A DNA stretch of 64,000 bases from an uncultured Ignavibacteria bacterium. GTDB taxonomy: Bacteria; Zixibacteria; MSB-5A5; CAIYYT01. A program made the translations under genes and the position numbers. The stretch lies in NCBI GenBank assembly GCA_964617645.1, contig CAZTYE010000005.1:73350-137349 (forward strand), read 5' to 3'. Shown here one piece after another: positions 1 through 22,707 of this stretch. The notes under the pieces are model-generated. The model was not told where the DNA came from and did no database searches. It saw only the letters and a program-made list of their open reading frames with translations. The first letter of the stretch is position 1, and each line of letters opens with the position of its first letter.

Positions 1-1364
1 CCGGCGATCAAGCCGGAGAGGATATTCAGCGACGCGCCGCCTTCACGCGACGACGCTACAACTTCCTTAACATGGCGCGATTTGGTTGACGTGAAAATCT
101 TAACCAGTTCGGGAATAATCGCTCCCGCCAGAGTGCCGCAGGAAATGATCGAAGCCAACTTCCACCACAGCGTGCTGTCGCCGCCAAGATTCGGAATCAT
201 CAAATACGAAATCAAGTAGGTCATGATGATCGAAACGATCGAAGTGATCCAAACCAGTGACGTGAGCGGCGCCTCAAAGTTGAAGCTCGGCAGTTTCGAG
301 TACTTCGCCTTCGCAATGATGCTGTTAATCCAGTACGATCCGATCGACGTCACGATCATCATCACGCGCATCGCGAAAATCCACACCAGAAGCTGAACTT
401 GATTTTCAGGATTCAAAACCGCGAGAAGGATGAACGTGATCAAAGCGACACCGGTCACGCCGTAGGTCTCGAATCCGTCAGCCGTCGGCCCAACCGAGTC
501 GCCGGCATTGTCGCCGGTACAATCGGCAATCACCCCGGGATTGCGGGCATCGTCCTCTTTGATGTTGAAGACGATTTTCATCAAATCGGACCCGATATCG
601 GCGATCTTCGTGAAGATACCGCCCGCAATGCGTAGCGCCGCGGCGCCGAGCGATTCACCAACCGCGAAACCGATGAAACAGTAACCCGCCAGATTCCCCG
701 GCACCCAGAGCAGAATCGCCAGCATGATGATCAGCTCGATGGAGATTAACAGCGTGCCGACGCTGATTCCGGCGCGGAGGGGAATTTCGTAAGTCGGAAA
801 GGCGGCGCCGGTCAGCGAGGCAAACGCCGAACGTGAATTCGCAAAGGTGTTGATTCGAATTCCGAACCAGGCCACGATGTAGCTGCCGGCAATACCGATC
901 AAGCTGAAGAGAATAATAATCATCAAGTTCGCCGCGCCGACCGGACGCAGCCAGCCGAAGTAGACGACCATGATGATCGCAATGAACGCCCACAGGAGCA
1001 GGATGAAACGCCCCTGAGTCAGCAGGTAGGTCTTGCAGGTTTCGTAGATCAGTTCTGAGATTTCAGCCATCGATTTATGAACCGGTAGCCCTTTTAATCC
1101 CCGAAACATGAACCAGCCGAACAGCATGCCGAGGAAGCAGACCACGATGCCGATCAACAGCAGCGTGTAGCCGTCCATCCCGAAAAATTCTTGCTGGCCG
1201 AGGTCCGGAACCTTGATATCGGCTTCGCCGGCCATCAGCGTCGGCGCGATGCTCAACACCAACGCCATCGCCAGCATCAGGGGAATTAAAGTCGCTTTGA
1301 GTGTGAACCGTCTCTTCACAGGACCCTCATTGCTAAATGTTGAATGTTTCTTGCTCACCGTCAT
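1..1364 (-). CDS. hppA: Membrane-bound H+/Na+-translocating pyrophosphatase, partial: N-terminal ~455 aa, gene continues past the window start
   Basis: My minus-strand translation from the ATG at 1364..1362 gives a multi-TM protein with V-PPase motifs (GGIFTKIADIGSDLMKIV, DCTGDNAGDSVGPTADGFETYG). The ORF runs off the window edge, so it is missing from the ORF track. Confidence 0.85.
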   Translation of the reverse strand, partial: MTVSKKHSTFSNEGPVKRRFTLKATLIPLMLAMALVLSIAPTLMAGEADIKVPDLGQQEFFGMDGYTLLLIGIVVCFLGMLFGWFMFRGLKGLPVHKSMAEISELIYETCKTYLLTQGRFILLLWAFIAIIMVVYFGWLRPVGAANLMIIILFSLIGIAGSYIVAWFGIRINTFANSRSAFASLTGAAFPTYEIPLRAGISVGTLLISIELIIMLAILLWVPGNLAGYCFIGFAVGESLGAAALRIAGGIFTKIADIGSDLMKIVFNIKEDDARNPGVIADCTGDNAGDSVGPTADGFETYGVTGVALITFILLAVLNPENQVQLLVWIFAMRVMMIVTSIGSYWINSIIAKAKYSKLPSFNFEAPLTSLVWITSIVSIIMTYLISYLMIPNLGGDSTLWWKLASIISCGTLAGAIIPELVKIFTSTKSRHVKEVVASSREGGASLNILSGLIA

Positions 1365-14017: not shown

Positions 14018-14305
14018 ATGGCGACCTACATCATACTCAGTAAACTCGGTCCGCACGCGTTTGAGTCACCCGACGGCCTCAAAGGGCTGGCGCAACAAGT
14101 TCGCGCCAAGCTGGAGCGGGAGTGCCCCAAAGCGCGCTGGGTGAAGAGCTACGGATGCATGGGGAGTTATGACGTTGTCGATATCGTCGAATCGGACGAT
14201 CCGCAGCAAATTGAGAAGGCGGTGATGATCATCCGCGCACTCGGACGGTCAACGACCGAGACACTGCTGGCGACACCCTGGGAGGACTTCCTCAAGGCGT
14301 TGTAG
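14018..14305 (+). CDS. GYD domain protein
   Basis: 95 aa, typical GYD-family size and sequence (YIILSKLGPHAF...GSYDVVDIVESDD). Confidence 0.7.
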   Translation: MATYIILSKLGPHAFESPDGLKGLAQQVRAKLERECPKARWVKSYGCMGSYDVVDIVESDDPQQIEKAVMIIRALGRSTTETLLATPWEDFLKAL

Positions 14306-14363
14306 CCAGCCAAGATCCTGTTGACATCGATACTCGAATTGATACTTCGGCTTTGCAATCCTT

Positions 14364-14394
14364 GGATTTGTAGCTCAGTTGGTTAGAGCTCGCG
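14364..14394 (+). other. Inverted partial copy of the tRNA-Ile 5' half (acceptor + D-arm), not a complete tRNA
   Basis: GGATTTGTAGCTCAGTTGGTTAGAGCTCGCG on the + strand, against GGGCTCGTAGCTCAGTTGGTTAGAGCGCGCG in the minus-strand tRNA-Ile. The following 11-bp-stem hairpin (14391..14417) is not an anticodon arm. Confidence 0.6.
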
Positions 14395-14554
14395 TCCCGA
14401 CCTTTGGTCGGGACGCGCGCAGCGTCATCAGACGGGGAATCTTCAAATGGGTTCGGGCAGAGTTGCGCTGCCGATCCCGACCTTTGGTCGGGATGCACAC
14501 AGCGTCATCAGGCCGGGAAATTTCAAATGGGCTCGGGCAGAGTTGAACTGCCGA
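14395..14554. repeat. Two tandem 80-bp units; each is a copy of the tRNA-Ile 3' end (T-arm + acceptor) plus ~53 nt of its 3' flank
   Basis: Units 14395..14474 and 14475..14554 align base for base: TCCCGACCTTTGGTCGGGA...CAAATGGG(T/C)TCGGGCAGAGTTG(CG/AA)CTGCCGA. The second unit supplies the real tRNA 3' end. Confidence 0.75.
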
Positions 14555-14601
14555 CCTCGCGCTTATCAGGCGCGCGCTCTAACCAACTGAGCTACGAGCC
14601 C
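14528..14601 (-). tRNA. tRNA-Ile (anticodon GAT)
   Basis: The reverse complement folds as a cloverleaf: acceptor GGGCTCG/CGAGCCC, D-arm GCTCAGTTGGTTAGAGC, anticodon stem CGCGC/GCGCG with loop CTGATAA, T-arm GGCAGTTCAACTCTGCC. Confidence 0.85.
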
Positions 14602-14893
14602 AGGAATAGGGAATGCCAAAGTACCAATCGACTTGAACTTGTCAATAAGATTTTCCTCGTTCCTGAAAGGCAAAGCCGGCGAATCTCATCGATCCACCGG
14701 CTTGTTGGGTGAGTGGAGGGATTATGACCAAACCCGCAATAGGGGGTAATCAGGGTAAAAGCTCTCGCGGCTAATCTGACTAATGGAGCAACTGAACTTG
14801 AGCCGCTTAGTCGCCTTTACACTGGGGAAGACGCACCGCCGGAAATGGTGTTTAATCCGTTCGCGAAAAATCTGGGTTTCGTATATTCGAGTC

Positions 14894-15733
14894 ATGCACA
14901 CCCGCGCTGCACAATTCGCCGGGAGCTTCTACACTAATAGCTCGTCGCGCCTCCGATCCGAGGTAGATTCGCTGCTCGCCGCGAATCCAGATGTCGGCAG
15001 CGAACGGCCTTACGGCATAATCGCACCCCATGCGGGTTACATGTACTCCGGCGCCTGTGCCGCCTTGGCCTATGCTCGATTGCGCCGGCACCGCGACAGC
15101 TACACTTCTGTTGTTGTGATTTCACCGTCGCACCGGGTTGGTTTCGATTTCGGATCGATATTCCACGGTGATGCCTACTCGACTCCGTTAGGCGCAATCG
15201 AAGTCGATACCGACCTGCGTACTAAGCTGGCTACCTATGACGGCTTGCGCGTCTCCGATTTGGGGCACTCCGAAGGTCGACTCGCCGAGCATTCTCTCGA
15301 AGTGCAATTGCCGTTTCTTCAGGTCGTCCTTGGAGACTTCAAGCTGATGCCAATCGTCATGGGCGAGCAGTCGCGGGATGCTGCAGCGGAGATTGCCGAA
15401 GCATTGTCGGGAGCTGTCGACATCACCTCGACGCTGCTCGTCGCCAGCTCCGACCTGTCCCACTTTCACTCGGCCGACCGCGCCGAGCGACTCGACCATC
15501 GAATCGTCGAAGCCATAAGTCGCTTTGACCCGCAATCGTTGCTCGACCTGATCGATTCCGGCCGTGCCGAAGCCTGCGGTTTTGGTCCAATGGCCGCCGT
15601 CTTGATAGCGTGTCAGCGACTCGGCGCAACCAAATGCGCGGTCGTCGATTACCGGCACTCTGGTCAGGTCACAGGCGACGCCGATGAAGTTGTCGGATAT
15701 CTTGCCGCTGTCATCACCGAGAATCGCAACTAA
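14894..15733 (+). CDS. MEMO1-family protein (AmmeMemoRadiSam system protein B homologue)
   Basis: The internal ATG at 14894 gives an N-terminus AAQFAGSFY. Conserved GIIAPHAGYMYSG and VVVISPSHR motifs. Confidence 0.8.
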   Translation: MHTRAAQFAGSFYTNSSSRLRSEVDSLLAANPDVGSERPYGIIAPHAGYMYSGACAALAYARLRRHRDSYTSVVVISPSHRVGFDFGSIFHGDAYSTPLGAIEVDTDLRTKLATYDGLRVSDLGHSEGRLAEHSLEVQLPFLQVVLGDFKLMPIVMGEQSRDAAAEIAEALSGAVDITSTLLVASSDLSHFHSADRAERLDHRIVEAISRFDPQSLLDLIDSGRAEACGFGPMAAVLIACQRLGATKCAVVDYRHSGQVTGDADEVVGYLAAVITENRN

Positions 15734-15863
15734 ATCGCCATTTTGGATACGCAACGCGACGCATTTGACATCGAGAATTGCCCGATCAAATACTTGACAA
15801 AACTACCCCAATACCGACATTGCGAGCAGTTTGACAATCAGGTTCTTCAGCAGGGAAGGTACT

Positions 15864-18197
15864 ATGTCCGCTCGTTTTGCTCCTCGGCAGTGGTGGATTG
15901 CCACGGCGCTTCTCGTCTCTTTCGCCCTAATTTCATGTTCATCCGACAGCAACGGCCCCGACAATCCGCCACCTGGTCCCACCGTGGTCGATCAAGTGAA
16001 GGCTACGATTTCCACGGCCGGGGGTGCGCTGCAACTCAAGAACGGCATCAGCCTTGCCTTTCCCAACGGCAGCGTCACGAAGTCAACGAATGTTGTGCTC
16101 ACTCAGTACGCAAATGACGACTTGTTCAATGATCCGTCACAAGTCGTGCTTGGACTCGAAATGGACGGCGCCGCATCGGCAGCACACTTCAAAGTTCCAC
16201 TCAAAAATGCTGAGACCCCCGAATTGCTCGGCGCCGCCAAGAGAAGCGCTGATGGCATGCGGCTTACTTATCTCACGCACACCTCTAACAGCGCAGGCGA
16301 CACCTGCGCCGTCGATCTGGCTTCCAGCCAAGGGTTGTCATTAGGTGCCACCCAAAACGTTAGTAGCGGCACTTATGTTATTGAGGCCGGCAGCCCGATC
16401 ACACTATCGACCAACAGCAAGGAAATCGCGATCCAATATTACGAACAGGACGGCGGCAATTGCTGGGCAGCCTGCTGGTTGTTATGGATGCGCGCCTACG
16501 AGAAGCTTCTCGCACGAGATGAAGTTCACGAGTTATTGGCTTTCATGGACATCGAGAAAGATAGCGGCCTGAATTGGCGTAAGACCGGCCAGTTGAAAAC
16601 CAAGACGAAGGAACTGACCCGACTCGATCCGGTCAAGAACACGTGGATCAGCTACTCGAATTTTGTCAACTACGTTGTGTCCTCGATCAATGCCGACAAA
16701 CCGGTGATGGTCAACCTAATTTCCCACCAAGGCGTCTTCGTCGGTTATGACATTCAAAACCCGGGTCCGAGCCAGACAGTAACGCTGATCTATCATGATC
16801 CCCAAAACAGCGCCACGCAAACACCTTACCGTCGAGTCACGCCTGCACAACTCAAAACCCAATTCTGGGATCAGCCGCAATGGGATATGGCCATCAGCAA
16901 CTACTTCGCCACTCTGGCTATGCCGACGGCGCTGCCGTCGCCGCAGGAACTACAGACAATTGAAATGATGGACATTCAGGCCGGTGGCAGCGTCAGTGGT
17001 ATGGAGAAGGGTGTTGCGTTTGCGCGCGGAAATTTCATCGTCGATGGTGTCTATTGGGACCACACGTTTCCCCGTGGATATCGCTTCGAGGTTCCGGCCA
17101 AAGTGATGCGCCGCATCGATCGCATTCACTACGATTCGCTTCCGGTCTGGAACATGGCGTCAAGCGCGGCTCCGGTAACCGTCGACTTGAGCCTGCATGT
17201 CGAAGACAATGGCGTCCCGCTTGATCCGCCGGTCTCAACAGCATCCGTCAGTGTAGTCGCCCCGCCGCGGGGAAACAAAGTTTTTAATGCCGACTTGCGT
17301 GTGGATCATTTGTTGCCGCAATTCGAGCTGTCCGACACGCTGTTCGTCGCCAAAGCTATCCTCAAAGATCAAGCCGGTACCGAGCTTGACGACTTTGATA
17401 TCCGCTTCAAGTATGTGCCGTTGCGCCTCGATGCGCTCACACCGACAAGCGGACAGGCCGGAGATCAGATTTTCCTCACCGGCATCGGCTTCGGCAACCA
17501 ACCGGGCAAAGTCGAATTCACCCAGAGCCAGCAGGCGGAAATCGTCAGTTGGAATCCGGGGCAGATCAAAGTCAAAGTTCCCGCCGCAGCCGCCGGCGGC
17601 CCGGTTGTGGTTATCATCGATGACGATACTTCCAACGCCATTAGCTTCTCGGTCGCCGGCTTCGTTGATAAAGTTCGTAGCTGTAGCTGGGATCAACTGT
17701 CGATCCAGGGTGTCTTCGAGTACTCTAATAGTCAGGTCGGCTACTCCGTTTTCGACCCGGTCTACGGCTACGACTATCCGCTCAGGTGGAACGGCATGAT
17801 CGCGCAAAAAGAGTTTCGCCACGGAGCCGACAGCGAGTCCGAATCGCTCTTCGTCAAGATTGAACTGGAACCAGGCGGACAGAAATTAAAATCCGTAATC
17901 GGCTACTTGCTTCGCGAGCAAATAAGTGAAGGAAAAGTCCGCGAACGCACGACAACAACTGTCACACTGAGCAATCTACCGTTCAGCTTCATAGATGAAG
18001 ACGCCGGCAACATCATCATCATTTACGAGTTAAGTGGCGCCGCTGTCGCCGGAGCCGCTCCGGTGATGAGCCGAATAAAGACCGACTACAACGAGCAGGG
18101 CCAAGTAACCGGGACGACGGTGTTAACCCGAAGTATCTTTACTGATCCGGCGCACAACGGCCGGATCCAATTCTGGTTGCACAAGATCAAGCCTTAG
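15864..18197 (+). CDS. Large lipoprotein with a papain-like (C1-type) cysteine peptidase domain followed by an IPT/TIG domain
   Basis: ATG at 15864 with a GGGAAGG ribosome-binding site. Lipobox LISC. YEQDGGNCWAACW resembles papain Q..CGSCWAF, and SHQGVFVGYD resembles the His motif. IPT/TIG-like LTPTSGQAGDQIFLTGIGFG...VVVIIDDD. Confidence 0.55.
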   Translation: MSARFAPRQWWIATALLVSFALISCSSDSNGPDNPPPGPTVVDQVKATISTAGGALQLKNGISLAFPNGSVTKSTNVVLTQYANDDLFNDPSQVVLGLEMDGAASAAHFKVPLKNAETPELLGAAKRSADGMRLTYLTHTSNSAGDTCAVDLASSQGLSLGATQNVSSGTYVIEAGSPITLSTNSKEIAIQYYEQDGGNCWAACWLLWMRAYEKLLARDEVHELLAFMDIEKDSGLNWRKTGQLKTKTKELTRLDPVKNTWISYSNFVNYVVSSINADKPVMVNLISHQGVFVGYDIQNPGPSQTVTLIYHDPQNSATQTPYRRVTPAQLKTQFWDQPQWDMAISNYFATLAMPTALPSPQELQTIEMMDIQAGGSVSGMEKGVAFARGNFIVDGVYWDHTFPRGYRFEVPAKVMRRIDRIHYDSLPVWNMASSAAPVTVDLSLHVEDNGVPLDPPVSTASVSVVAPPRGNKVFNADLRVDHLLPQFELSDTLFVAKAILKDQAGTELDDFDIRFKYVPLRLDALTPTSGQAGDQIFLTGIGFGNQPGKVEFTQSQQAEIVSWNPGQIKVKVPAAAAGGPVVVIIDDDTSNAISFSVAGFVDKVRSCSWDQLSIQGVFEYSNSQVGYSVFDPVYGYDYPLRWNGMIAQKEFRHGADSESESLFVKIELEPGGQKLKSVIGYLLREQISEGKVRERTTTTVTLSNLPFSFIDEDAGNIIIIYELSGAAVAGAAPVMSRIKTDYNEQGQVTGTTVLTRSIFTDPAHNGRIQFWLHKIKP

Positions 18198-18370
18198 AAA
18201 GAGCGCATTATTCGTGGTGTAGTTCCGGCAAGTCAAGTGCGACGACGCAGATTCCCATATGTGTTGAAGGACAAGAAAAGTCCGGGATATCCGCATGTAG
18301 CTATTGGACAACAACCTCGCAGCCGGGCGCCGGCTTCTACATTTTCCCGAAAATTTTCCGAAAATTCCTA

Positions 18371-18398
18371 TTGACAGCCGAACCGCGCCGTATATATT
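18371..18398 (+). promoter_or_regulatory. Sigma70-like promoter for the tRNA-Ala–23S–5S unit
   Basis: TTGACA (18371..18376), 16-nt spacer, TATATT (18393..18398). Upstream is an AT-rich tract with repeated CCGAAAATT, which looks like an UP element. Confidence 0.45.
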
Positions 18399-18538
18399 GC
18401 GCGTCGCTGTTTGAGGGCGTACGGAAAGTCGACTTCGCAGAAAGCGCGAAGCGATTTTTTTTCGATACCAGATTCATACTCGGCGGGGCGACGGGAACAG
18501 GTATCCTCAGGCAGAAATATGGCAGTCTTCGATTTTTC

Positions 18539-18611
18539 GGGGATGTAGCTCAGTTGGGAGAGCGGCGGCTTTGCAAGCCGTAGGTCGTCGGTTCGAACCC
18601 GATCATCTCCA
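18539..18611 (+). tRNA. tRNA-Ala (anticodon TGC)
   Basis: 73-nt cloverleaf: acceptor GGGGATG/CATCTCC with G3:U70, anticodon loop TTTGCAA, T-loop TTCGAAC. Confidence 0.9.
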
Positions 18612-19300
18612 GGACGAGTAAGACCGTAAGGTCTTCAGATAGATGTGACAAGCTTGTTTCCCGCGTCGTCGGGAAAGTCACGATCTTTGACAACTAAATA
18701 TCAGAGCCGATGCGGATCGAAACCAGCGTGACTACAGAGATCGAGCTTTTAGGATTTCGATCAAGTTAATAAGAGCATACGGCGGATGCCTTGGCATCAA
18801 GAGGCGATGAAGGACGTGGTAAGCTGCGATAAGCCTCGACTAGGAGCAAACATCCTTTGAGTCGGGGATTTCCGAATGGGGCAACCCAGTGCCGCGAAAG
18901 CGGTATCTATCGCATACTGAATTCATAGGTATGCGAGGCGAACGGGGAGAACTGAAACATCTCAGTACCCCCAGGAAGAGAAAACAACCGTGATTTCCTG
19001 AGTAGCGGCGAGCGAAAGGGAAAGAGCCTAAACCGACGGGTACGTTAAAGCGGATACGCGTTGTACCTTCGGTGTAGCGGGGTCTGTTCGGACCGAAGTG
19101 TCCATAGGTCGGTAAGTCAAAAACCGTTTGTTTAGTCGAATACGCCTGGAAAGGCAAACCAGAGACGGTGACAGTCCGGTAGACGAAAAACAAACGACTT
19201 ACTCGAATGGATTCCCAAGTAACTCGGAGCACGAGAAATTCTGAGTGAATCTGTCGAGACCACTCGATAAGGCTAAATACTCCTTGATGACCGATAGTGA

Positions 19301-19332
<32 letters not shown>

Positions 19333-20475
19333 GCTGACGCGGAGTGAAATAGTACCTGAAACCGTGTGCTTACAAGCTGTGGGAGGAAGAGATGTCCTTC
19401 GGGATGTCTGGACTGACCGCGTGCCTATTGAATAATGACCTAGCGAGTTACTCCTCGGTTGCAAGGTTAAGGCAAACACTGCCGGAGCCGTAGCGAAAGC
19501 GAGTCTTAAACGGGCGTTTAGTAGCCGGGGGTAGACCCGAAGCCAGTTGATCTATGCATGGCCAGGATGAAAGGCCGGTAAAACGGTCTGGAGGTCCGAA
19601 CTCACCGCTGTTGAAAAGGCGGGGGATGAGCTGTGCATAGGGGTGAAAGGCCAATCAAAACTGGAAATAGCTGGTTCTCCCCGAAATAGCTTTAGGGCTA
19701 GCCTCGTGTTAAAGTGTGACGGAGGTAGAGCACTGAATTGGCTAGGGGGCCTACAAGCCTACCGAACCGAATCAAACTCCGAATGCCGTCGACATGTTCC
19801 ACGGGAGATAGTCTACGAGGGATAAGCTTCGTAGGCGAAAGGGAAACACCCCAGACCGCCGGCTAAGGTCCCTAATCAGAGCTAAGTGACAAAGGATGTG
19901 GAATTACTGAAACAGCTAGGATGTTGGCTTAGAAGCAGCCATTCATTTAAAGAGTGCGTAATAGCTCACTAGTCTAGTGATTCTGCGCCGATAATAAACG
20001 GGACTAAGCTTTGCACCGAAGCCGCGGACTTCCTGCCGCAAGGCAGGATTTGGTAGGGGAGCATTCTGTTGTAGTGCGAAGGTGTCGCGACAAGCGATGC
20101 TGGACGAATCAGAAGAGATTATGCTAGGACGAGTAGCGATAAAACAGGCGAGAAACCTGTTCACCGTAAACCTAAGGGTTCCTGAGGAAGGTTAATCCGC
20201 TCAGGGTTAGTCGGATCCTAAGTTCAGGCCGAAAGGCGTAGATGATGGAAAGCAGGTCAATATTCCTGCACCAGGTGTGAAGCGTTTGAGCTATGGGGTG
20301 ACGCAGTCGTGAAAGAGCAGCCGGCCGATGGATGCCGGTCCAAGCAGGTAGGCGGATCGCACAGGAAAATCCGTGCGGTCAACGCCGAGATGTGACGGGG
20401 AAATGAGTCTTCGGACAAACCAACTGCTCCTAATCATACTGCCGAGAAAAACCTCTCTGCAAGCAACACATCTGT

Positions 20476-20509
<34 letters not shown>

Positions 20510-20995
20510 ATATCCTAAGGTGCTCGAGCTAACCCACGTTAAGGAACTAGGCAAAGTGGCCCCGTAACTTCGGAAGAAGGGGTGCTCCTAAGTAGGTGTA
20601 GCGTACAGCGAAGCCGAATGGAGTCACAGTAAAGAGGCCTGGGTGACTGTTTACTAAAAACACATGTCTCTGCTAAGCCGTAAGGCGACGTATAGGGACT
20701 GACACCTGCCCGGTGCTGGAAGGTTAAGAGGAGGGGTCAGCTTTGATTTATCATTGCGAAGCTCTGAATCGAAGCCCCAGTAAACGGCGGCCGTAACTAT
20801 AACGGTTCGAAAACGTTCCTTTCTTTCGATTCGCGATCCTTAATTCATCGGCTTTCAGCAATGAAAGCTTGTGATTATGGGCCGTTACAAAATCCGGCTA
20901 TATGCTGGAAACTCCGTGTATCTGACGCTACCCCGCCTTGGCGGGGTGACAATGCGCTCAGTGCGGACAACCAGCAGGAAAGATCAAGTCAGCTT

Positions 20996-21039
20996 GGGTG
21001 CCCCACAGACCTGTCCCGCTTTGCGGGATTGCGGTGGGA
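20996..21039. repeat. Hairpin repeat family B, copy inside the 23S insertion
   Basis: GGGTGCCCCACAGACCTGTCCCGCTTTGCGGGATTGCGGTGGGA, with nested inverted repeats CCACAG/CGGTGG and TCCCGC/GCGGGA. Confidence 0.7.
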
Positions 21040-21092
21040 AAACGTAAGCTGCTCGATATCCTCAGAGACTGTACGCCGGACGGATTTTCTCG

Positions 21093-21124
21093 GGTGCCCC
21101 ACAGCTTGCTGTGGGGTCAATGAG
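21093..21124. repeat. Hairpin repeat family A, copy inside the 23S insertion
   Basis: GGTGCCCCACAGCTTGCTGTGGGG, palindrome CCCACAG-CTTG-CTGTGGG. Confidence 0.7.
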
Positions 21125-21264
21125 AGATCTAAAGATACAGTCCGAACTTCATGGCGACATGAAGAGTGCGGCAGAAATGACCGCACCCATTGCCTCGATC
21201 CGAACATCGGTCAAGTGATAGAGACGCTTGACCACAAACGTGATCTTGCATTGAGTAACAACTG

Positions 21265-21320
<56 letters not shown>

Positions 21321-21573
21321 AACTTGGGCGCTGTCTCAACGTGGGACTCGGTGAAACTGTAGCAGCGGTGAAGATGCCGCTTACCCGCATCGGGACGAAA
21401 AGACCCCGTGGACCTTTACTATAACCTGGCATTGGTATTTGGACGGGCATGTAGAGCATAGGTGGGAGGCTTTGAAGCTGGGGCGCTAGCCTCGGTGGAG
21501 CCATCAGTGGAATACCACCCTTGTTCTTTCGGATATCTAACCTTGACCCCTGAATCGGGGTGAGGAACACTGC

Positions 21574-21606
<33 letters not shown>

Positions 21607-21824
21607 CAAAGAGTAACGGAGGCGTACAAAGGTTGACTCAGGCTGTTTGGTAATCAGCTGTAGAGCGCAAGGGTATAAGTCAGCTTAACTGCGAGACGTA
21701 CATGTCGAGCAGGTACGAAAGTAGGTCCTAGTGATCCGGCGGTTGTGCGTGGAAATGCCGTCGCTTAACGGATAAAAGGTACCCCGGGGATAACAGGCTG
21801 ATCTCCTCCGAGAGTTCACATCGA

Positions 21825-21888
<64 letters not shown>

Positions 21889-22327
21889 CTGGCTGTTCGC
21901 CAGTTAAAGTGGTACGTGAGCTGGGTTTAGAACGTCGTGAGACAGTTCGGTCTCTATCTGATGCGGGCGTAGGAGATTTGCGGGGAGTTGACCCTAGTAC
22001 GAGAGGACCAGGTCGAACGGACCGCCAGTAGACCAGTTGTCGCGCCAGCGGCATGGCTGGGTAGCTGTGTCCGGTAGGGATAAGCGCTGAAGGCATCTAA
22101 GTGCCAAGCCCACCCCAAGATTAGATCTCCCTGACGTAAGTCCTAAAGGCTCCTGGAAGATGACCAGGTGATAGGTCACAGATGCAAGCGCTGCGAGGCG
22201 TTCAGTCGAGTGATACTAATTGGCCGTGAGACTTGATCTATAAATTTGTCGGCGGGGCGAGAGCATCAAACTCACCCCATCCCGATAAATCTTGATCCAA
22301 GTACGTCAAACTCTTCGGTGGCCCACA

Positions 22328-22349
22328 GCTTGCTGTGGGAAATTCGAAG
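22328..22349. repeat. Family A hairpin in the 23S–5S spacer
   Basis: CTTCGGTGGCCCACAGCTTGCTGTGGG. Confidence 0.7.
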
Positions 22350-22461
22350 GTTCAAGGGACTACAGTGATCAATCGCAATCCAAAAAGCTTCTCTGATCGC
22401 GTTGCTTCGATCCACATCGGCTTCTGATATTTGGTGATAAATTTCGCCATCCTTTCCGACT

Positions 22462-22575
22462 TGTCATTCCGGCGAAAGCCGGAATCCAGGTTTCGCCCGT
22501 CATTCCCGCGCAGGTTGAGCGCGACGAAATCCCGCGCTTCAGCGGGACGGGAATCCAGCGGAGTCGGGAAGAGAA
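22462..22575. repeat. Composite RS3-like stem-loop repeat (family E variant) in the 23S–5S spacer
   Basis: GTCATTCCGGCGAAAGCCGGAATCC...CATTCCCGCGCAGG...CCCGCGCTTCAGCGGGACGGGAATCCAGCGG. Related to the units at 61.7 and 63.1 kb, with the first module inverted. Confidence 0.6.
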
Positions 22576-22591
22576 TAGGCAACCGAATTTT

Positions 22592-22707
<116 letters not shown>

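Follow-up and report, generated by a model that had tools for sequence, protein, structure and literature searches.

What could have left an intact tRNA gene at the end of a series of its own fragments? The window (the whole 64-kb stretch of DNA analysed here) contains such an arrangement next to its tRNA-Ile(GAT) gene (Table 1). The preliminary description saw two tandem 80-bp units, the last of them joined to the only complete tRNA, together with an inverted copy of the tRNA 5′ half, and proposed an integrase scar, a recombination hotspot or a regulatory structure as the explanation. This anatomy was borne out by our analysis. Tandem Repeats Finder reported a period of 80 and 2.0 copies over positions 14395-14554 (87% matches, score 250), and a separate repeat search found the units at 14395-14474 and 14475-14554 to be 88% identical. 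Both ARAGORN and Rfam found exactly one intact tRNA in the region, and no additional intact or split tRNA.

Table 1. Features of the tRNA-Ile array in the window (R1, covariance model built from other genomes)
Feature	Position	Strand	Evidence
Inverted tRNA-Ile 5′-half pseudo-copy	14358-14394	+	Inverted repeat, 37 nt, 84%; R1
Palindromic hairpin 1, 19-mer identical to hairpin 2	14395-14413	.	Sequence; inverted-repeat analysis; R1
34-nt tRNA 3′ flank copy (spacer of repeat unit 1)	14414-14447	-	Tandem-repeat analysis
tRNA-Ile 3′-part pseudo-copy (TC + T-arm + acceptor 3′ strand + A73)	14448-14474	-	Sequence; repeat comparison; R1
Palindromic hairpin 2, TCCCGACC-TTT-GGTCGGGA	14475-14493	.	Sequence; covariance model R1
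Native 34-nt tRNA-Ile 3′ flank (spacer of repeat unit 2)	14494-14527	-	Sequence; within 80-bp tandem repeat
Intact tRNA-Ile(GAT) gene, without encoded CCA	14528-14601	-	ARAGORN; Rfam RF00005, 73.1 bits

On the plus strand, each unit consists of the 19-nt hairpin TCCCGACCTTTGGTCGGGA, a 34-nt spacer and, in reverse complement, the 27-nt 3′ end of the tRNA, which takes in A73, the acceptor 3′ strand, the T-arm and 2 nt of the variable loop. Of the two 27-nt copies only 14528-14554 is part of the intact tRNA, doubling as the end of unit 2; in the copy at 14448-14474 the T-loop is mutated from TTCAACT to CGCAACT and the acceptor strand from CGAGCCC to CGAACCC. The native flank that forms the spacer of unit 2 reads TTTGAAATTTCCCGGCCTGATGACGCTGTGTGCA on the minus strand, and its copy in unit 1 holds 8 of the 10 mismatches between the units. 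That both units share this native flank points to a tandem duplication and does not resemble a junction of chromosomal with foreign DNA. The region folds far better than its shuffles on both strands (z of -8.3 and -9.2), and no terminator is predicted between tRNA-Ile and the downstream units. A scan of the region against Rfam (E up to 10) returned, beyond the tRNA, merely three chance-level matches. We rejected a hammerhead or a C/D-box kink-turn at the spacer CUGAUGA, in which no GAAA core, three-helix junction or consistent core could be seen by eye and no Rfam ribozyme matched. The 80-nt unit was also rejected as a decayed whole tRNA (74 + 6 nt), as it has only a weak similarity to the anticodon arm (10 of 17 positions).

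The inverted 5′ half forms, with positions 14571-14607, the two arms of a 37-nt inverted repeat with 84% complementarity. In it, 6 nt of upstream flank lead into the acceptor strand GGATTTG; then come an intact D-arm identical to that of tRNA-Ile and the anticodon-stem strand TCGCG, after which hairpin 1 follows immediately; the acceptor strand differs from the GGGCTCG of the tRNA by three transitions. The capping hairpin is real, although its stem, previously given as 11 bp, is better described as an 8-bp core, lengthened by CGCG on each side to reach 14 of 15 pairs over 14388-14420. These CGCG extensions are retained remains of the tRNA-Ile anticodon stem. Hairpin 1 is also the junction at which the orientation of the array flips. 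Both hairpins meet the anticodon-arm boundary exactly: the plus-strand order is D-arm, TCGCG, hairpin, CGCG, and on the minus strand hairpin 2 stands directly before the pseudo T-arm and acceptor (14474-14448), in the order hairpin, TC, T-arm, acceptor, and so in the anticodon-arm position. A split or intron-containing tRNA was rejected because a single tRNA is present, GGATTTG shows no complementarity to CGAACCC or CGAGCCC, and there is no anticodon loop.

The palindrome thus takes the place of an anticodon arm in the array, and we found the same substitution in other genomes. Within the window the exact 19-mer occurs only twice, both times in the array, with 0.04 matches expected for a 19-mer even with up to 3 mismatches, and chance is excluded as the origin of these copies. 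Elsewhere it was found in 47 genome contigs, in 14 of which it lies beside a real tRNA gene; the copies in the window are identical to those at loci L005-L051. In most of these 14 the adjoining tRNA (Ala, Arg-ACG, Lys, Asp, Asn) has a pseudo-copy in which the 19-mer stands in place of the anticodon arm or T-loop, while at L013, L044, L048 and L049 it merely follows a tRNA or tRNA-like 3′ end. A metagenome scan with a free loop added cases with Lys, Met, Gly, Arg and Leu tRNAs, and the 19-mer, or its stem with other loops, stands in the anticodon-arm slot of Ala, Arg, Lys, Met, Asp, Asn and Gly pseudo-copies. The hallmark of this widespread family is a pseudo-copy of the neighbouring tRNA in which a GC-rich palindrome stands in for the anticodon arm (positions of about 27-43), and it occurs beside many different tRNA genes in Bacteroidota-like bacteria. 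We found no description of such an element in the open-access full texts that were searched.

Association of the palindrome with tRNA genes is far above background. Of 182 hairpins, 30 have a true tRNA no more than 200 nt away, against a rough expectation for random genomic positions of ~0.6%, and sequence resembling a D-arm or a T-arm abuts 20 of the 182, compared with 1 of 910 control positions (~100-fold enrichment). A covariance model, R1, made from 11 examples from other genomes with the window left out, recognized the array in two places: 14365-14428 on the plus strand as D-arm plus hairpin (E 3e-7), and 14447-14511 on the minus strand as hairpin, T-arm and acceptor (E 5e-5). Across loci the core of the palindrome is YCCCGAY...RTCGGGR, represented in the window by TCCCGACC-TTT-GGTCGGGA. 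It is retained through two-sided (compensatory) changes at 3 of 8 pairs, with a conserved lower stem and a variable apex; the conserved cores are separated by 2 to 6 nt, depending on the family member, and the loop may face either way relative to the tRNA sense strand. The loop triplet was rejected as an anticodon, as it does not track the parent isotype (TTT/AAA occurs with Ala, Arg, Lys and Ile, and ATA with Met). Snap-back copying of the tRNA-Ile segment AGGTCGG was rejected as the source of the hairpin, as the same hairpin occurs with tRNA-Ala, which has no such segment.

Tandem arrays are also found elsewhere, with 5 units of 89 nt (L032), 2 of 90 nt (L033) and 2 of 83 nt (L043). The period across the family ranges from 80 to 113 nt, and the two 80-bp units of the window, which end in an intact tRNA as the second unit merges into tRNA-Ile, are comparable to L032, L033, L043, L068 and L107. 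The spacer between tRNA-Ile and tRNA-Ala is among the loci that gain tandem pseudo-tRNA arrays. ARAGORN calls some units of the family 'tRNA-???' with four-base anticodons. At L068 and L158 the pseudo-tRNAs are of full length with both D- and T-arms intact, and those of L068 each have their own terminator. Not all copies of the palindrome are tied to tRNAs: some form the apex of GTCATTGCGAG...CGAAGCAATC-type repeats, and others stand beside other genes in Saprospiraceae contigs. In several unrelated genomes (L007, L012, L029, L030, L037) the 19-mer is a plain terminator hairpin followed by a T-run, indicating that some of the matches elsewhere are due to chance.

At no fewer than 14 loci (a lower bound) the signature adjoins genes for GIY-YIG proteins of 81-95 amino acids, and in 11 of these at least 14 loci the pseudo-tRNA is fused to the gene end (10 with an ORF of the Arg clade, plus L144). 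GIY-YIG ORFs (Pfam PF01541) stand beside the hairpin at L024, L028, L034, L044, L060, L107, L116, L144 and L158. When the search started from the protein, all five loci retrieved through homologues showed the ORF followed by a tRNA-like sequence with a CCCGAY...RTCGGG palindrome, in a sample whose members share at least 53% identity with a single Arg-linked ORF and form one clade of non-independent loci; ORFs are in tandem in two of the protein-first loci (3 in L172 and at least 6 in L174). In complete members the gene follows closely on a real tRNA with its terminator and reads into the acceptor and D-arm of the pseudo-tRNA. The conserved C-terminus of the ORF, RSSTE, is encoded by tRNA D-arm sequence, and the stop codon is the TAG of the pseudo-tRNA D-loop. 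The predicted structure of the nuclease (pLDDT 84) is nearest to those of UPF0213 BH0048 and of the branched-DNA nuclease Slx1. A GIY-YIG ORF accompanies ~1/3 of tRNA-linked hairpin loci within the DNA fetched. We could not detect any GIY-YIG similarity in the 64-kb window (tblastn best E 0.12; no HMM match); having no GIY-YIG ORF fused to a pseudo-tRNA, the window holds at most a derivative that lost the gene. The neighbouring GYD gene was rejected as cargo, as it is absent from all 172 other loci, and the nearest homologue of the flanking Memo protein is 58% identical and has a different gene neighbourhood.

We give an even chance to the reading that the array is what remains, old, decayed and gene-less, of a GIY-YIG selfish element associated with tRNAs, and that recombination at the palindrome expanded it and inverted a part of it. 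The nuclease would break DNA at or near the tRNA-like sequence or the palindrome, and homologous recombination would mend the break, with the homology provided by two parts that tRNAs have in common, the D-arm and the variable-loop/T-arm. Such repair would move the palindrome, together with the gene where there is one, into copies of different tRNA genes, and misaligned repair could generate tandem arrays ending in a real tRNA. At a palindromic site, recombination between two copies might also invert a segment, and the inverted 5′ half at hairpin 1 would thereby be accounted for. Under this scheme the nuclease would be the cause of both spread and amplification, and the array of the window would descend from a gene-carrying copy. 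The array itself is probably inactive, because its copies have diverged (88%), the T-loop and acceptor pairing are broken and the nuclease gene is absent. The earlier suggestion of a recombination hotspot is plausible. The lack of a GIY-YIG gene in the window, however, counts against a selfish element, and the nuclease could be a secondary passenger, given that its ORF is found at just ~1/3 of the tRNA-linked loci. Furthermore, if tRNA genes were the target, the intact tRNA beside the element would stay vulnerable.

The conserved lower stem, variable apex and compensatory changes also fit selection on an RNA or single-stranded hairpin. The array may encode a functional RNA, its palindrome-substituted tRNA-like units being transcribed from the tRNA promoter and serving, possibly, as anticodon-less tRNA-shaped scaffolds or decoys, as 3′-end or processing signals for the tRNA-Ile precursor, or as RNA partners or antidotes of the nuclease. 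The position of the units directly 3′ of tRNA-Ile, with no predicted terminator between, and the intact arms and own terminators of the full-length pseudo-tRNAs described above are consistent with such a role. So is the gene order of L028 and L107 (hairpin repeats, tRNA, terminator, ORF), with the ORF beginning between a few bases (L173) and ~20 bases past the T-run, which we take to resemble type III toxin-antitoxin loci such as ToxIN. The occurrence of stand-alone GIY-YIG domains fused to a TrmH-like tRNA methyltransferase (PMC1564403) is likewise in keeping with a functional RNA. We nevertheless consider a functional RNA unlikely: the units of the window are fragments (a lone 5′ half and lone 3′ parts) with broken acceptor pairing and a mutated T-loop, one piece is on the opposite strand, the units are just 88% alike, the loop is found in both orientations to the tRNA sense strand when loci are compared, and no Rfam family matches. 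A bolder version, which we regard as rather improbable, is that the tRNA-like units and the UPF0213/Slx1-type mini-nuclease make up a previously unrecognized two-component system, of which the window would hold an orphan RNA array. Such a system would be widespread in Bacteroidota, Ignavibacteriota and related phyla and would be expressed via borrowed tRNA promoters and terminator read-through, with the anticodon-less tRNA-shaped RNA, or a DNA cruciform, acting as the antidote of the nuclease (as in type III toxin-antitoxin systems), its scaffold or its target.

Alternatively, the palindrome could be the cis site of another recombination or transposition system, the GIY-YIG genes merely sharing its preference for tRNA loci. 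Candidates are the core site of a tyrosine or serine recombinase and a hairpin recognized by an HUH enzyme of the kind known from REP/RAYT or IS200/IS605. The two inverted arms of 8 bp, with a short and variable centre between them, do look like a recombinase core, the palindrome marks the inversion junction of the window and occurs also away from tRNAs, and no GIY-YIG ORF is nearby in two-thirds of the tRNA-linked cases. We hold this possibility to be doubtful, however, as an unsystematic look beside tRNA-linked copies and a scan of 17 window ORFs revealed no recombinase or transposase gene, the core distance of 2-6 nt is unusual for a protein-bound double-stranded site, and the 64 kb of the window, with two copies in the array alone, show no REP-like dispersal. 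A further explanation, along the lines of the preliminary description, is that elements with a tyrosine integrase directed at the 3′ half of tRNA-Ile integrated and were later lost, leaving the units behind as attL/attR remnants. Integration classically leaves such a mark, a partial copy of the tRNA 3′ end downstream of the intact gene, as reportedly recognized by Williams in 2002, and a symmetric sequence in place of the anticodon arm is similar to att cores of the anticodon-loop class. This explanation is largely refuted and, in our estimation, very improbable. The 34-nt flank of the tRNA itself is repeated in both units, which border no foreign DNA; the fragments begin after the anticodon arm and are joined to a palindrome common to unrelated tRNAs in other phyla; and a 5′-half copy is present too. 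Integrase or island genes, of which the preliminary description had also seen none, were not found in ~14 kb downstream (lower coordinates) or ~12 kb upstream of the tRNA, and Pfam analysis of 17 ORFs (16 at 1.4-18.2 kb and one at 24-26 kb) revealed no recombinase or phage families. The 19-mer has no match in 2.9 million viral contigs, on which ground a phage origin was rejected. What stands of the integrase-scar proposal is a footprint like that of an agent targeting tRNA genes; the att sites do not stand, since the flank is native and a one-off scar does not predict a palindrome recurring beside unrelated tRNA genes in many genomes. The simplest alternative is a purely local accident, with slippage duplicating the 3′ end of the tRNA and its flank next to an ordinary terminator-like hairpin that belongs to no wider family. 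Terminator use of the 19-mer in other genomes would allow for this, yet the hairpin in the window has no T-run, stands twice at the exact anticodon-arm boundary and is recognized with its neighbouring pieces by a model trained on other genomes, and tRNA-arm-like flanks are strongly enriched beside it; we thus see very little chance of an accident.

If the array is a decayed selfish element, a close parallel is SegB of phages T4/T6, a free-standing GIY-YIG homing endonuclease of the tRNA gene region, which cuts inside tRNA genes at the motif RAWTSGAAC and drives recombination-dependent tandem segmental amplification of a tRNA-containing unit, the resulting arrays being unstable (PMC13096335). 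On our reading of its sequence, this motif appears to resemble the T-loop region. Complete elements of the family likewise have a GIY-YIG nuclease gene among tRNA genes. However, SegB is a phage protein, a truncated form of which without the C-terminal part is inactive, whereas the ORFs found here are chromosomal, comprise only the catalytic domain and are of the UPF0213/Slx1 type. SegB amplifies intact tRNAs, while in the extra copies here a conserved palindrome has replaced the anticodon arm and, in the window, there is no nuclease gene at all.

Tandem repeats directly 3′ of a tRNA, co-transcribed with it and each ending in the 3′-terminal nucleotides of the tRNA, are known from the E. coli tyrT operon (rtT RNA, Rfam RF00391), and the array shares this layout of tRNA 3′ copies. 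The rtT units, in contrast, are 178 bp long, are confined to enterobacteria and have neither palindrome substitution nor 5′-half copy, and the rtT covariance model did not match in the region (Rfam scan, E up to 10). The attL/attR sites of integrase-borne islands also place partial tRNA copies beside an intact tRNA and involve a mobile element landing at tRNA genes; the window differs from them in the lack of an integrase or island in the scanned flanks of the tRNA, in its duplicated native flanks and 5′ half, and in the family-specific palindrome in place of the anticodon arm. REP/BIME sequences with RAYT transposases are similarly short, GC-rich, intergenic and clustered palindromes in both orientations, but REPs are dispersed in many copies per genome and outside tRNA pseudo-copies, whereas the 64 kb of the window have two copies, and no Y1 transposase was noticed. 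The nuclease itself has the minimal GIY-YIG domain of the stand-alone UPF0213/YhbQ and Slx1-like proteins (PMC1564403; PDB 1ZG2, 6SEH), with BH0048/Slx1 as the closest predicted fold, although Slx1 needs Slx4 and acts on branched DNA. A function, a link to tRNA genes or a palindrome is mentioned for stand-alone GIY-YIG proteins neither in PMC1564403 nor in the other literature that we found.

These loci could give the large and uncharacterized family of stand-alone GIY-YIG (UPF0213/YhbQ-like) proteins its first biological context, that of tRNA genes. They reveal a recurrent route by which tRNA loci gain tandem pseudo-tRNA arrays, rearrangements and copy-number variation, and they warn annotators that such units are neither tRNAs nor integrase att sites. 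The conserved palindrome provides a simple searchable marker, by means of which the selfish-element hypothesis and the RNA-partner hypothesis can both be tested directly.

The array lies between two convergent genes and holds a single intact tRNA, with nothing further above Rfam thresholds. The preliminary description, of two tandem 80-bp units and an inverted copy of the tRNA 5' half beside one complete tRNA, was borne out in all three respects and at the coordinates it gave (Tandem Repeats Finder and repeat search for the repeats, ARAGORN and Rfam for the tRNA; see table). Read on the minus strand, tRNA-Ile is followed by a 34-nt flank, the hairpin TCCCGACC-AAA-GGTCGGGA, a 27-nt pseudo-copy (TC, T-arm, acceptor 3' strand and A, with a broken T-loop), a second copy of the flank, the same hairpin again and, finally, the reverse complement of the tRNA-Ile 5' half. 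The last piece reads on the plus strand as the acceptor strand GGATTTG, an intact D-arm, TCGCG, hairpin and CGCG, the hairpin being enclosed by remnants of the anticodon stem of tRNA-Ile. In the minus-strand pieces, the hairpin immediately precedes a variable-loop remnant and the T-arm. In both types of piece the hairpin stands in the place of the anticodon arm, and this, rather than the 3'-end duplication as such, is the informative feature. Folding of both strands far exceeds that of shuffled sequence (z of -8.3 and -9.2). The array looks old, given the mismatches between its units and the damage to its tRNA-derived parts. The flank carries CUGAUGA and a GAAAUUUC palindrome, kept in both units, which matched no known motif. 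The neighbouring GYD gene is unrelated and is missing from all other loci.

Features of the array and its surroundings (window numbering)
Feature	Coordinates	Strand	Remarks
GYD-domain gene	14018-14305	+	
Inverted repeat	14358-14394		37 nt, 84% complementary to tRNA 5' half, 14571-14607
Covariance-model match	14365-14428	+	D-arm and hairpin, E 3e-7
80-bp unit	14395-14474		units 87-88% identical, mismatched at 10/80 positions
Hairpin 1	14395-14413		
34-nt flank	14414-14447	-	
Covariance-model match	14447-14511	-	hairpin, T-arm and acceptor, E 5e-5
80-bp unit	14475-14554		
Hairpin 2	14475-14493		
34-nt flank	14494-14527	-	
tRNA-Ile(GAT)	14528-14601	-	ARAGORN, Rfam
Memo-family gene	14783-15733		next after tRNA-Ile
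Split rRNA operon	14528-22707		
Promoter-like TTGACA...TATATA	about 18372-18400		upstream of tRNA-Ala/23S/5S group
23S rRNA gene	18759-22240		exceeds model length by about 560 nt
Group I intron	20831-21164		in 23S gene; RF00028, 59.7 bits

A search of one genome per species found the exact 19-mer of the hairpin in 47 contigs, the named organisms being mostly Bacteroidota and Ignavibacteriota, together with one Omnitrophota contig and some unclassified MAGs. Some matches, in unrelated phyla, are ordinary terminators with T-runs and probably reflect chance. A real tRNA gene adjoins the hairpin in 14 of the 47 contigs (L-numbers denote such contigs and loci), and in most of these the hairpin occupies the anticodon-arm slot of a pseudo-copy of the neighbouring tRNA; in L013, L044, L048 and L049 it merely follows a tRNA or tRNA-like 3' end. 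The tRNAs concerned are tRNA-Ala (L015, L032 and L033, with 1, 5 and 2 units of ~89 nt between tRNA-Ile and tRNA-Ala), tRNA-Arg(ACG) (L024, L028, L034), tRNA-Lys (L011, L043), tRNA-Asp (L005) and tRNA-Asn (L020), and the loop faces either direction relative to the tRNA. A metagenome scan with the loop left free gave at least 120 loci; among the matches listed, the same stem carries at least 51 loop triplets, and pseudo-copies of Lys, Met, Gly, Arg and Leu tRNAs were added. Some pseudo-copies are full length (L068, L158), each with its own terminator in L068. In L043 (7286-7470) and L028 (about 150-200) the palindrome is found at the T-loop position of a pseudo-tRNA, alone or with a second, related hairpin (TCCCGCC-GAAG-GGCGGGA), indicating that both tRNA loops are replaceable.

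The palindrome also occurs in other settings. In Saprospiraceae and Lewinellaceae (L010, L016, L031, L035) the 19-mer has a separate conserved context, GGG-hairpin-TGACAAGCAGCGGTGGC, beside or within a long ORF and with no relation to tRNAs. L048 (about 150-400, minus strand; an unclassified bacterial MAG) shows something else: the anticodon-loop region of a tRNA-Val-like gene is interrupted by an insertion in which inverted repeats CCCCGTTAGA and TCTAACGGGG enclose a complete, intact tRNA-Val gene, and the D-loop carries another insertion with these repeats. By its appearance this is a separate element, aimed at tRNA loops, that supplies its own replacement tRNA.

Three figures gauge the association with tRNAs. 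A true tRNA lies within 200 nt of 30 of 182 hairpins, against a rough expectation of about 0.6% for random positions. D-arm-like or T-arm-like sequence abuts 20/182 hairpins versus 1/910 control positions in the same loci, as scored by small HMMs trained on part of the set (L028, L032, L033, L116 and L123 were outside the training). A covariance model built from 11 examples, none from the window, recovered both true tRNAs of the window and, in addition, the two array pieces listed in the table. By these comparisons, the window array belongs to a family of palindrome-substituted pseudo-tRNAs. Among aligned examples, pairing is kept through two-sided changes at 3 of the 8 palindrome pairs.

In Chitinophagaceae loci, an ORF of 85-89 aa is joined at its 3' end to the pseudo-tRNA; it encodes no more than a GIY-YIG domain (Pfam PF01541, E 1e-13 to 3e-14). 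With a small HMM, such ORFs were found adjoining the hairpin in L024, L028, L034, L044, L060, L107, L116, L144 and L158. The usual order is real tRNA, terminator, ORF, D-arm remnant, palindrome, variable loop, T-arm and acceptor 3' strand, often with a second terminator copy. The ORF starts from a few bases (L173) to about 20 bases past the terminator T-run; tRNA D-arm sequence codes for its conserved C-terminus, RSSTE, and the D-loop TAG serves as its stop codon. Homologues of the L034 ORF, traced to five contig loci of one clade (at least 53% identical, thus not a broad sample), were in all five followed by a tRNA-like sequence with a CCCGAY...RTCGGG palindrome (TCCCGATTacaaATCGGGA, CCCCGACtttgGTCGGAG, TCCCGATttacatATCGGGA, TCCCGACtttcaaGTCGGGA). 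The ORFs can be tandem, with three in L172 and, in L174 (1-1750), at least six copies of an 81-aa ORF plus tRNA-like unit at a period of 348 nt; ARAGORN labels the latter tRNA-likes 'tRNA-???' with a four-base anticodon (taca), an annotation trap. When modelled with AlphaFold (pLDDT 84), the ORF most resembles the stand-alone UPF0213 protein BH0048, HIGLE and Slx1, the I-TevI catalytic domain ranking lower, and the predicted fold matches the prokaryotic 'minimal Slx1-like' group described by Dunin-Horkawicz et al. (PMC1564403). Neither tblastn nor HMM searches found a GIY-YIG ORF in the 64-kb window.

Slx1-type enzymes are cutters of branched or hairpin DNA. The closest experimentally studied parallel to these loci is phage SegB, an endonuclease of the GIY-YIG type; it cuts within tRNA genes and brings about tandem amplification, dependent on recombination, of a tRNA-containing segment (PMC13096335). 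By analogy, the small nuclease would break DNA at a tRNA-like sequence or palindrome, and repair would rely on homology in the D-arm and in the variable-loop/T-arm, since these are similar in most tRNAs. Such a process would explain why positions about 27-43 are cleanly replaced in copies of many different tRNAs and why a single palindrome has spread over tRNA types and phyla alike. It would also explain arrays whose last element is always an intact tRNA, and gene-free remnants after loss of the nuclease gene. Recombination between two palindrome copies might give inversion as well as duplication, which would place the 5' half in the window on the opposite strand, joined exactly at hairpin 1. 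We infer such a nuclease-driven origin, with the window array as a remnant, at roughly an even chance of being right; the account is weakened by the lack of a nuclease gene in the window, by a nearby GIY-YIG gene in only about one third of tRNA-linked loci, and by the need for the intact neighbouring tRNA to escape cutting.

The preliminary description had offered, among other readings, that the units are scars of integrase att sites, which is now very improbable: native tRNA flank is duplicated, no integrase was present among the ORFs scanned, and the 19-mer had zero matches in viral contigs. A purely local accident is just as hard to credit, being contradicted by the covariance-model matches in the window and the arm-flank enrichment. 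The array might instead be a functional RNA, tRNA-shaped and lacking an anticodon, as suggested by the conserved lower stem with its variable apex and compensatory changes, by the full-length copies at some loci, and by an order of repeats, tRNA, terminator and ORF that recalls type III toxin-antitoxin loci; the window units, however, are fragments spread over two strands, and we consider this reading unlikely. Somewhat less probable again is that another recombination system is at work and GIY-YIG is a bystander, although the palindrome does occur away from tRNAs, for instance at the apex of longer GTCATTGCGAG...CGAAGCAATC-type repeats (L039, L104, L110, L162, L060), and in L060 lies at the ends of 190-nt direct repeats that bracket a GIY-YIG ORF lacking a nearby tRNA.

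The rRNA operon of the window is split. tRNA-Ile(GAT), whose usual place is the 16S-23S spacer, lies 4 kb from the grouped tRNA-Ala(TGC), 23S and 5S genes, on the opposite strand and with two protein genes intervening; the 64-kb window has no 16S gene. The group I intron of the 23S gene contains no convincing homing-endonuclease ORF. Speculatively, palindrome arrays, which lie between tRNA-Ile and tRNA-Ala in L032 and L033, might contribute to breaking the rRNA operon.

Tandem repeats linked to tRNAs, such as rtT, are already known, as are GIY-YIG elements at tRNA genes, such as SegB (PMC13096335). In open-access full texts we found no description of palindrome-substituted pseudo-tRNAs or of tRNA-linked stand-alone GIY-YIG cassettes, though an earlier account of either may exist elsewhere, and Rfam 15 lacks a matching family. 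The copy in the window is a decayed example that led to a wider family, which appears to be undescribed so far.
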